Assembly (NCBI GenBank): GCA_964398355.1
Contig: CAYNMM010000120.1
Coordinates: 1 to 59,577, forward strand
DNA: 59,577 nt
Origin: an uncultured bacterium
GTDB lineage: Bacteria; Hydrothermota; Hydrothermia; B15-G9; WFZT01
Direction of reading: 5' to 3'
The position numbers and the translations under genes were made by a program. The notes under the pieces are model-generated. The model did not search any database. It saw nothing but the letters and a program-made list of their open reading frames with translations, and was not told where the DNA came from. Below are positions 53,480-59,210 of the stretch, one piece after another (positions within the stretch are counted from its first letter, which is position 1; each line of letters opens with the position of its first letter).

Positions 53480-53508
53480 TTGACGTGTTAAAGGCACAGC
53501 CAAATAAT
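53480..53508 (+). promoter_or_regulatory. Promoter of the pyrR cluster, probably leaderless
   Basis: TTGACG, 17 nt, AATAAT, 7 nt, ATG; no SD. Confidence 0.55.
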
Positions 53509-53515
53509 TGAAAGT

Positions 53516-54061
53516 ATGGAAAAATTGATGGATTCTGATGAAATCAGAGAGGTCATTGAAAAGACTGCAAGTGAAATAGCTGGAGAGTTTAAGGATTACC
53601 ATAATCTTGGTATTATTGGAATAAAAACACGAGGAGTACCTATTGCAAAAAGACTTTCACGCAAAATAAAAGATCTTGTAGGCTTTGATGTACCTGTCGG
53701 TGAGCTTGATATAACTTTTTACAGAGATGATTTAACTTTAGTTTCAAGTGCCCCTATCGTAAAGGGCACGGATATAAAATTTGACGTCAATGGAAAGAAA
53801 ATAATACTTGTAGATGATGTTCTCTATACGGGTAGAACGGTAAGAAGCGCACTTGACGAGATTCTTGTGGACTTTGGGAGACCGGAAATTATAAGACTCT
53901 TCGTAATTGTCGATAGAGGAAACAATGAGTTACCTATCTGTGCAGATTACATTGGGAAAAAAGTCGTAGTTCCACGTGACAAGATTGTTGATGTTCTTGT
54001 AAAAGAGGTTGACGGTAGAGATGAAGTAGTTATTAGAGGAAAACAGGAGGAATTGCCATGA
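53516..54061 (+). CDS. pyrR: PyrR (pyrimidine regulator/uracil phosphoribosyltransferase)
   Basis: [44 protein letters not shown]. Confidence 0.93.
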
Positions 54062-54456
54062 TCTTTGAAATAAAGATAAGGTCATCCCGCAGAATTGAAA
54101 TGATTGATATAACGCCCCAGGTCCGTGAAATCATCAGGAAATCTGGAGTAAAGGAAGGTATCTGTGTACTTTATGTACCTCACACTACAGCGGCGGTAAC
54201 CATTAATGAGAATGCTGATCCGTCTGTGAGAGTGGACATAGAGAATACGCTCTCGAAACTTGTTCCCTACGGTGCCGGATATGCTCATCTTGAGGGAAAT
54301 GCTGATGCCCATATCAAATCAACAATGGTCGGCCCTTCCGAAAATCTCTTAATCCGAAATGGTGATATTTTACTTGGGACCTGGCAAGGGGTATTCTTTT
54401 GTGAATTTGACGGACCACGTAACAGAAGAATCTATATCAAAATTATGGAAGGCTAA
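54058..54456 (+). CDS. yjbQ: YjbQ/UPF0047 family protein
   Basis: [35 protein letters not shown]. Confidence 0.92.
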
Positions 54457-54923
54457 TGACTTACATCGCAAGTGCATGTCTCATAGGACTCTGCACAAGA
54501 TATGATGGAAAAACCAACACAGATAGTTACGTTTTGGAGCTGTTTAAAAAAGGAAAGGTTATCCCCGTTTGTCCGGAGCAGCTTGGTGGATTACCAACTC
54601 CACGAGAGCCTGTAGAGTTCAAAGGGGGAGATGCTGAGAAAGTTTTAAGAGGTGAAGCAAAATTGATAGGTATTCAGTCAGGAGAGGACAAAACAGGCCA
54701 ATTTATAAAAGGGGCAAATGAAGTTCTAAAAATCGCAAAACTTTTAAAAATAGATGCAGCTTTTTTAATGGAAAGAAGTCCATCTTGTGGAAGTACCCTT
54801 GTACATATCAATGGTGAGCTTGTCAAGGGAATCGGGGTAACTGCTTATCTTTTGAAAAAATCTGGAATCAAAATCATACCGAGAGCACCGGAGGGTTTAG
54901 ATTGCCAAGAGATAGATTTGTAA
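54456..54923 (+). CDS. DUF523/TudS-like thiouracil desulfidase family Fe-S protein
   Basis: SACLIG..RYDG, CPEQLGGLPTPR, RSPSCG. Confidence 0.88.
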   Translation: MTYIASACLIGLCTRYDGKTNTDSYVLELFKKGKVIPVCPEQLGGLPTPREPVEFKGGDAEKVLRGEAKLIGIQSGEDKTGQFIKGANEVLKIAKLLKIDAAFLMERSPSCGSTLVHINGELVKGIGVTAYLLKKSGIKIIPRAPEGLDCQEIDL

Positions 54924-55477
54924 TTGATACAAGTGTTTTCACAAATCCAGACACACGGGTTGTTTTTGGGGAATCCACACAGGAAGCCTTTCTAAATTTT
55001 ATCGATCTCGCAAGAAATGTACGAAAAAAAATAGATTTTTATATGCCACCTTCGGTTTACGAGGAGCTTTTACATTTTGTGGAAGAAAATGAACTCCCTG
55101 GAGATGCAGAGCTTGTCATTTATATCAAACCACCCAAGAGATTTGAAGTGATGGTGCCGGGTTTCCTGCTCTATGAGTTAATAGAGGAGCTTAGAGCAAG
55201 GATAGATAAGGGATTGAGGGTGGCAGAGGAAGCCGTCCGTTCCGGTGAAGAAAGTGCAAAAACCATATCAAAACTAAGAAACAAGTACAGAAATGCCGTT
55301 AGAAGTGGCATAATAGATTCCAAGGAGGACGTTGACCTGATTCTCCTTGCTATGGAATTAAATGGTGCACTTGTCACAAGTGATCACGGTATTATCAAAT
55401 GGGCTGAGAAACTTGGGGTTAGAACAGTGAATCCAAAAGCGTTCAAGTCAATCATTGATAAGTACATTAAAAAATAG
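54902..55477 (+). CDS. RNA-free ribonuclease P (HARP, Aq_880-like)
   Basis: 191 aa; [59 protein letters not shown]; TTG start with SD GGAGG. Confidence 0.9.

Positions 55478-56931: not shown

Positions 56932-59210
<2,279 letters not shown>

Follow-up and report, generated by a model that had tools for sequence, protein, structure and literature searches.

Homologues of the Aquifex ribonuclease P (RNase P), the RNA-free HARP enzymes, are common in archaea but sporadic in bacteria, and in Aquifex aeolicus such a protein has replaced the ribozyme, as the initial annotation of the DNA studied here had correctly stated. In the A. aeolicus enzyme Aq880, the residues D7, D138, D142 and D160 are essential, T8, S9, S139 and E141 likewise belong to the active site, and the basic residues R94, R96, K99, R102, R125, R129 and R133 bind the elbow of transfer RNA (tRNA) (PMC8405995). 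Five dual RNase P bacteria, which have a HARP beside the ribonucleoprotein (RNP) enzyme, have been described from three phyla other than the one considered here: Thermodesulfatator indicus, Halorhodospira halophila, Alkalilimnicola ehrlichii, Thioalkalivibrio nitratireducens and Methylacidiphilum infernorum (PMC9945441). Seshadri and Gopalan reported that the RNA ligase Rnl3 (TIGR01209) co-occurs in 89% of HARP-positive genomes (PMC12153264). On this point Daniels et al. say no more than that the HARP-only state occurs in "some unclassified bacteria" (PMC6380272), and the HARP literature that we searched names no member of WOR-3/Caldifarciminota. We analyzed a stretch of 59,577 nucleotides (nt) from an uncultured bacterium of this phylum (contig CAYNMM010000120.1 of assembly GCA_964398355.1; hereafter the window), and found that its gene at 54902-55477 very probably encodes a functional PIN_5 enzyme of the HARP family, in a probably thermophilic WOR-3 bacterium that also carries RNP RNase P and Rnl3, where it would be an accessory and not a replacement of the ribozyme.

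The open reading frame is exactly where the initial annotation had put it, on the forward strand and with 191 codons for amino acids (aa). The gene has the following features, numbered by residue in the window protein.

54890 to 54895, + strand: Shine-Dalgarno sequence GGAGGG, read from the sequence, inside the TudS gene near its 3' end and with a 6-nt spacer to the HARP TTG.
54902 to 55477, + strand: HARP coding sequence, 191 aa, TTG start and TAG stop, a putative PIN_5 metallonuclease into which a spike domain of two helices is inserted.
54926 to 54934, + strand: codons of D9-T10-S11 (Aq880 D7-T8-S9), the first acidic active-site motif.
55163 to 55303, + strand: spike-helix or protruding-helical insertion, residues 88-134, predicted surface for tRNA-elbow binding and dimerisation (roles from PMC8405995).
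55316 to 55336, + strand: codons of D139-S-K-E-D143-V-D145 (Aq880 D138, S139, E141 and D142), the second acidic motif.
55382 to 55384, + strand: codon of D161 (Aq880 D160), the last of the four catalytic aspartates.

Two congeneric species share the TTG start, and the acidic motifs that the initial annotation had named are at residues 9-11 (DTS), 139-145 (DSKEDVD) and 159-161 (TSD). Profile searches showed that the protein matches Pfam PIN_5 (PF08745) with 218.9 bits (E=6e-65, cut-off 27), covering profile positions 1-205 of 205, and NCBIfam TIGR03875, named "RNA ligase partner protein", with 219.9 bits against a cut-off of 95.3. PIN_5 was thus the best profile match and not another PIN family, the generic PIN model PF01850 giving just 24 bits. 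In the PDB, seven distinct sequences named "RNA-free ribonuclease P" were matched at E=2.5e-63 to 2.4e-47, among them Aq880 of A. aeolicus (7f3e, 8kd9) and the enzymes of Hydrogenobacter (8ssf, 8kda), Halorhodospira (7og5), Planctomycetes and Thermococcus (7e8k, 7e8j), and relatives of the window protein are already auto-named "RNA-free ribonuclease P" or "RNA ligase partner protein" in public databases. All eight active-site residues of Aq880 have their equivalents (D9, D139, D143, D161, T10, S11, S140 and E142), as do all seven elbow-binding residues (R98, R100, K103, R106, R126, R130 and R134). In an alignment of 31 diverse HARPs, the eight active-site residues and the six arginines were invariant, and K103 was present.

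The AlphaFold2 model of the protein (predicted local distance difference test 85.6, predicted template modelling score 0.78) combines an alpha/beta core of PIN type with a long helical hairpin formed by residues 88-114 and 119-134 (the 47-residue insertion) and a C-terminal helix at 178-190. This predicted C-terminal helix aligns through to the end of 7e8k and 7e8j; a helix at this position is required for HARP to assemble into tetramers or larger forms (PMC9945441). Using Foldseek, we found that the model fits best on 7e8o_B, the pre-tRNA-bound Planctomycetes HARP, with a template modelling score (TM) of 0.94 and a root-mean-square deviation of 1.5 A; the top 34 matches were all HARP chains (TMq 0.67-0.94), and the best non-HARP PIN proteins reached TM <= 0.45. 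Because the sequence, residue and fold tests all agree, membership of the HARP family can be regarded as established as far as sequence and a predicted fold can show, and the reading of the gene as an Aq_880-type enzyme with a basic helical region was borne out by all three. The same tests bear on another reading, in which the protein would be the toxin of a toxin-antitoxin module, a PIN protein akin to VapC. In structure, HARP falls within the VapC group of PIN domains, and the weak PF01850 match is of this kind, but VapC proteins are compact (~130 aa) and lack the 47-residue spike-helix insertion and full HARP architecture seen here, the model aligns to VapC structures with TM <= 0.45, the gene upstream encodes a 155-aa TudS and is not of antitoxin size, and HARP is kept throughout the genus as a single-copy gene. 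A toxin is therefore highly improbable, with profiles, upstream gene and fold all against it, and we rejected it.

The closest HARPs, with 89-95% identity, come from metagenome-assembled genomes (MAGs) labelled "candidate division WOR-3 bacterium", whose phylum at NCBI is now Caldifarciminota. The next relatives, with 52-63% identity, belong to other WOR-3 families, to anammox Planctomycetota and to Nitrospirota/Thermodesulfovibrionales. For the window organism, too, the genome (G000) is known only as a MAG, of 129 contigs and 2.16 Mb, 93% complete with 3.5% contamination and a guanine-plus-cytosine (GC) content of 40%. Its tRNAs average 64% GC and its rnpB has 62% GC; because these values are far above that of the genome, we infer that the host is a thermophile. 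Among three congeneric species, the nonsynonymous difference (pN) of HARP was 0.06-0.085 while the synonymous difference (pS) was 0.77-0.82, and since synonymous sites are saturated, dN/dS cannot be expressed as a ratio. With 89-91% aa identity between congeners, HARP was the best-conserved gene of its neighbourhood, compared to 73-78% for PyrR, 64-68% for TudS, 86% for UPF0047 and 86-87% for CcmC. As judged from these comparisons, the gene is under strong purifying selection and shows no decay.

The initial annotation had raised the question of whether this organism has also lost rnpB and rnpA. It has not, since both are retained intact in the same genome. A search with RF00010 found a full-length class A rnpB at G000:C4:1136-1518 with 288 bits (gathering score 100), covering model positions 1-367, so there is no ribozyme loss; this RNA keeps the conserved P4 strands GAGGAAAGUCCG and ACAGAAC.CGGCUUA, plus the GGU of L15. 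The PF00825 profile found rnpA on contig C64 with 63 bits, in the canonical order: it starts 10 nt after rpmH, and yidC comes next. The rpmH-rnpA pair is directly preceded by a tRNA-Val gene of the same strand (G000:C64:18302-18857). We considered whether rnpB and rnpA could come from contaminating DNA, and rejected this as unlikely: their contigs are long (45.6 kb and 20.8 kb) and of typical GC, they rank 2nd and 35th of 129 in tetranucleotide closeness, and the pattern is repeated in all congeners, with HARP, rnpB, rnpA and Rnl3 in all six species of the genus in our collection. In one congeneric MAG (G176), there were two full-length rnpB matches, C43:13824-14227 and C33:69646-70022, of 404 and 377 nt and 275-277 bits; the second could reflect duplication, strain heterogeneity or contamination (4%).

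Judged by gene content, the organism is thus a dual RNase P bacterium with HARP, rnpB and rnpA, and not a case of Aquificaceae-type replacement. That HARP could be the sole RNase P, as in A. aeolicus, is in keeping with a bona fide HARP and with the replacement seen in two other families of the phylum (below), but intact rnpB and rnpA are present in G000 and its five congeners and the canonical rpmH-rnpA order is kept, so this reading was rejected as highly improbable. Because the same genome retains both RNP genes intact, HARP would be accessory. The tRNA genes were consistent with this. At position -1, U was found in 25/44 tRNA genes of G000 and A in 9/44, compared to A(-1) in 38/44 tRNA genes of the HARP-only A. 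aeolicus (PMC12439589, Davydov et al.). The 3'-CCA was encoded in 14/44 genes of G000. An encoded 3'-CCA is the pairing partner of the L15 GGU in class A RNase P RNA. Because U(-1) dominates the leaders and 14/44 genes encode CCA, it is the RNP enzyme, we infer, that serves this organism as housekeeping RNase P.

We then compared HARP, RNP and Rnl3 across a sample of the phylum, grouped by families (f). The counts are genomes, as follows.

HARP-positive with RNP kept (f1, f4, f7, f8 and f12), 22 genomes: rnpB in 21/22, rnpA in 21/22, Rnl3 in 22/22.
HARP-positive with RNP absent (f11 and f26), 14 genomes: rnpB in 0/14, rnpA in 0/14, Rnl3 in 0/14.
HARP-negative (other families of the sample), 14 genomes: rnpB in 12/14, rnpA in 12/14, Rnl3 in 0/14.

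The Fisher p of this split was ~1e-9 to 1e-10, and 3e-10 for Rnl3 in the HARP-positive genomes with RNP (22/22) versus the HARP-negative ones (0/14). The phylum-wide co-occurrence of HARP and Rnl3 matches the published association (PMC12153264). In the window's genome, Rnl3 lies at G000:C62:2285-3373 (340 bits for TIGR01209) and has RNA_ligase (PF09414) and Lig_C (PF18330) domains. Since HARP, RNP and Rnl3 occur together in G000, the window HARP belongs to the ligase-partner mode.

The two families without RNP were f11 (7 species: G088, G112, G116, G122, G138, G154 and G164), from the same class as the window organism, and f26 (8 species: G022, G034, G060, G065, G070, G085, G090 and G100), from another class, with HARP in every species of both. 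No RF00010 match above 16 bits was found in these 15 genomes, even with relaxed filters. The same search does detect class-B and archaeal control genomes, and for this reason even a divergent P RNA should probably have surfaced, if only as a weak match. No PF00825 match to rnpA was found in 14 of the genomes, and in 12/12 readable f11/f26 genomes yidD came directly after rpmH, at a distance of -10 to +5 nt (L104, L106-L115 and L117), so that this junction is a clean rnpA deletion and not a gap of the MAGs. It is probable that f11 and f26 lost the RNase P ribozyme independently of each other, as two events outside Aquificaceae.

The tRNA genes of one genome from each family (G116 and G070; loci L131-L184, Infernal coordinates) were examined for the Aquifex signature. 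A(-1) made up 32% in G116 and 34% in G070 versus 20% in G000, which is not a significant difference, and U was the commonest base. The absence of an A(-1) bias in these RNP-less families indicates that the co-evolution of tRNA leaders in Aquifex is not general. The 3'-CCA was encoded in 0/41 genes of G116 and 2/38 of G070 versus 14/44 of G000, a comparison made without an RNP-positive sister family as control. Regarding tRNA detection, ARAGORN missed 29/41 of the G116 tRNAs (for example L135 and L138), which Infernal scored at 56-79 bits with RF00005 and whose 7-bp acceptor stems are perfect. The sole HARP of two f11 species was frameshifted at an A9-A10 run in a KKK stretch (G112, L129, C22 ~1444-1453; G154, L130, C5 ~1016-1040). 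The split is at codons ~35-40, and both halves are 62-83% identical to intact orthologues without the A-run; the frameshift could be an assembly error or transcriptional slippage.

In the HARP tree, which came from a quick search with support only from the Shimodaira-Hasegawa-like approximate likelihood ratio test and in which long-branch placements call for caution, f11 fell within the cluster of the WOR-3 class with a stem of 3.5 changes per site, f26 was sister to the Nitrospirota clade with a stem of 2.0, and Aquificaceae attached to the cluster of the window's WOR-3 class with a stem of 1.8. All three RNP-less groups were therefore long-branched. These placements bear on one possible role, in which HARP would be a back-up or co-worker RNase P that shares the 5' load of pre-tRNA, a transition state before loss of the ribozyme. 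A housekeeping co-worker or high-temperature back-up role was proposed for the HARP of T. indicus (PMC9945441). Such a role would agree with the thermophile-like GC values of tRNA, rnpB and genome, with the thermophilic origin of the sole active HARP from a dual bacterium (PMC9945441), with the attachment of the Aquificaceae HARPs to this class, and with f11, which belongs to the same class, lost RNP and kept HARP. On the other side, the rnpB of the window's genome is full length at 288 bits and shows no sign of relaxed constraint, the leaders are of the RNP type with U(-1) and not A(-1), one third of the tRNA genes encode CCA, a feature that slows cleavage by the Hydrogenobacter HARP ~10-fold (cited in PMC12153264), and archaeal HARP knock-outs have no tRNA phenotype (PMC12153264). 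We regard a back-up role, which would be one form of an accessory HARP, as possible but short of probable.

In the window, HARP lies in a tightly packed co-directional run of genes. The other features of the run are listed below.

53480 to 53508: promoter-like site before the pyrR-like gene, a consensus-level hint, such sites being no commoner in the scan than expected from shuffled sequence.
53516 to 54061, + strand: pyrR-like phosphoribosyltransferase gene, upstream and co-directional.
54058 to 54456, + strand: UPF0047/YjbQ gene, upstream and co-directional.
54456 to 54923, + strand: gene of a TudS-type 2-thiouracil desulfurase (DUF523, PF04463), 155 aa, Pfam 117 bits, overlapping the HARP start by 22 nt.
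55488 (ATG), + strand: gcvPB, downstream and co-directional, 10 nt past the HARP stop.
56932 to 57639, + strand: ccmC, downstream and co-directional.

The motif scan, which gives consensus-level hints, found no terminator-like site on the + strand between 53516 and 56930. The pyrR-like and UPF0047 genes upstream are kept within the genus only. TudS-HARP is the only pair of the neighbourhood kept beyond the genus (g1), recurring in f7 with a TudS of 50% identity located 7-8 nt from HARP (adjacency loci L004/L084, L005/L085, L006, L088 and L089). Elsewhere, HARP adjoins Rnl3 convergently in f4 and f8, and the two are neighbours in 23/32 Planctomycetota loci and 17/40 Nitrospirota loci. In 6/6 genomes of the genus, the gene right after Rnl3 encodes a full-length ThiI with THUMP, PP-loop and rhodanese domains (G000:C62:853-3424, L128; congeners L118-L122). 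ThiI is the synthase of 4-thiouridine (s4U) in tRNA. In G182 and G194, rnpB lies directly upstream of Rnl3 in the same orientation, giving the order rnpB-Rnl3-ThiI, and in f12 HARP abuts a ThiI homologue. The neighbourhood links to TudS, ThiI, Rnl3 and rnpB suggest a shared tRNA-centred pathway with HARP.

These links bear on a second form of accessory role, in which HARP would be a specialised nuclease of Rnl3-linked RNA repair or processing; it would leave defined 5'-phosphate ends on tRNA-like or other small RNAs, which Rnl3 would then seal or circularise, with a possible link to s4U. It is favoured by the co-occurrence of HARP and Rnl3 in 22/22 genomes where RNP is kept and their joint absence elsewhere, by the convergent neighbours of f4, f8, Planctomycetota and Nitrospirota, by ThiI after Rnl3 and rnpB before it in two species, and by TudS before HARP in f1 and f7 and the ThiI homologue at HARP in f12. 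It draws, however, on gene neighbourhoods, the C/D-box RNAs proposed as substrates in archaea are not known in bacteria, and the HARP-only families do without Rnl3. We regard this role, too, as possible but short of probable.

From the solved structures of homologues (PMC8405995, PMC9945441), the accessory HARP of the window may be pictured to work as follows. Two monomers would dimerise via the inserted helical hairpin, and the dimers would stack into tetramers and up to dodecamers. The basic face of one dimer would bind the tRNA elbow, and the Mg2+/Mn2+ site of a neighbouring dimer (D9, D139, D143 and D161) would cut the 5' leader, its distance from the elbow being fixed. The RNP enzyme would carry the bulk of tRNA 5' maturation, with HARP as a helper or specialist nuclease for the 5' ends of tRNA or tRNA-like RNAs, probably in the pathway of Rnl3. 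We give about equal weight to HARP being a high-temperature back-up RNase P or a specialised enzyme upstream of Rnl3 in vivo.

Several points weigh against a functional accessory enzyme that partners Rnl3. Four of five HARPs from dual bacteria were inactive on pre-tRNA in vitro or in E. coli (PMC9945441), so conservation alone is no proof of pre-tRNA cleavage. Rnl3 was not found within 5 kb of HARP, being on another contig in G000 and at none of the HARP loci of the genus. The phylum-wide counts of HARP, Rnl3 and RNP are of species and not of independent evolutionary events, and the linkage of HARP, rnpB and rnpA in a 129-contig MAG with 3.5% contamination rests on binning and on six congeneric MAGs.

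The accessory reading could be extended to the whole phylum. WOR-3 would then be a series of RNase P states, in which the window HARP is the ancestral ligase-partner form within a tRNA repair or quality-control network of Rnl3, ThiI and TudS (s4U), recruited at least twice as sole RNase P. In f11 and f26, the absence of the ribozyme coincides with the absence of Rnl3, a long HARP stem branch and a near-absence of encoded CCA. As a whole, this extension is doubtful, and we put it forward as speculation.

With RNP-only lineages, dual lineages with Rnl3 and HARP-only lineages in one phylum, there is a comparative route to how and why a protein replaces the ribozyme, and the same phylum lets the function of HARP beside the ribozyme be studied between relatives. 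The links of HARP and Rnl3 to TudS, ThiI and rnpB are concrete leads for the accessory function.

Compared to the known systems, the best match of the window HARP is that of Planctomycetes bacterium GWF2_40_8 (7e8k apo, 7e8o with pre-tRNA), with ~54-58% identity, E=2.5e-63 and TM 0.94, the same length and the same catalytic and basic residues. It differs in phylum and in that Planctomycetes often have an adjacent Rnl3, whereas the window HARP is paired with TudS instead. The HARPs of A. aeolicus and Hydrogenobacter thermophilus (7f3e, 8kd9, 8kda and 8ssf) are ~46-50% identical to it with TM 0.89-0.91, Aq880 itself being at ~50%, and all residues essential in Aq880 are present; unlike the Aquificaceae, which have lost rnpB and rnpA, depend on HARP and have A(-1) in 38/44 tRNA genes, the window organism keeps RNP and has mostly U(-1). 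Both genes of the TIGR03875/Rnl3 (Pab1020, TIGR01209) pair (PMC12153264) are in G000 but not co-located, and HARP-only families of the same phylum have no ligase, indicating that the HARP-Rnl3 partnership is not obligatory. The closest parallel in gene content is with the dual RNase P bacteria (PMC9945441), which likewise combine HARP with functional-looking rnpB and rnpA, and among these with T. indicus, also a thermophile with a compact genome of ~2.2 Mb. Unlike them, the window organism has no P12 expansion seen in its rnpB, and its phylum is new for the dual state, so that the window gene adds one bacterial phylum to the short dual RNase P list, a useful if unsurprising addition.

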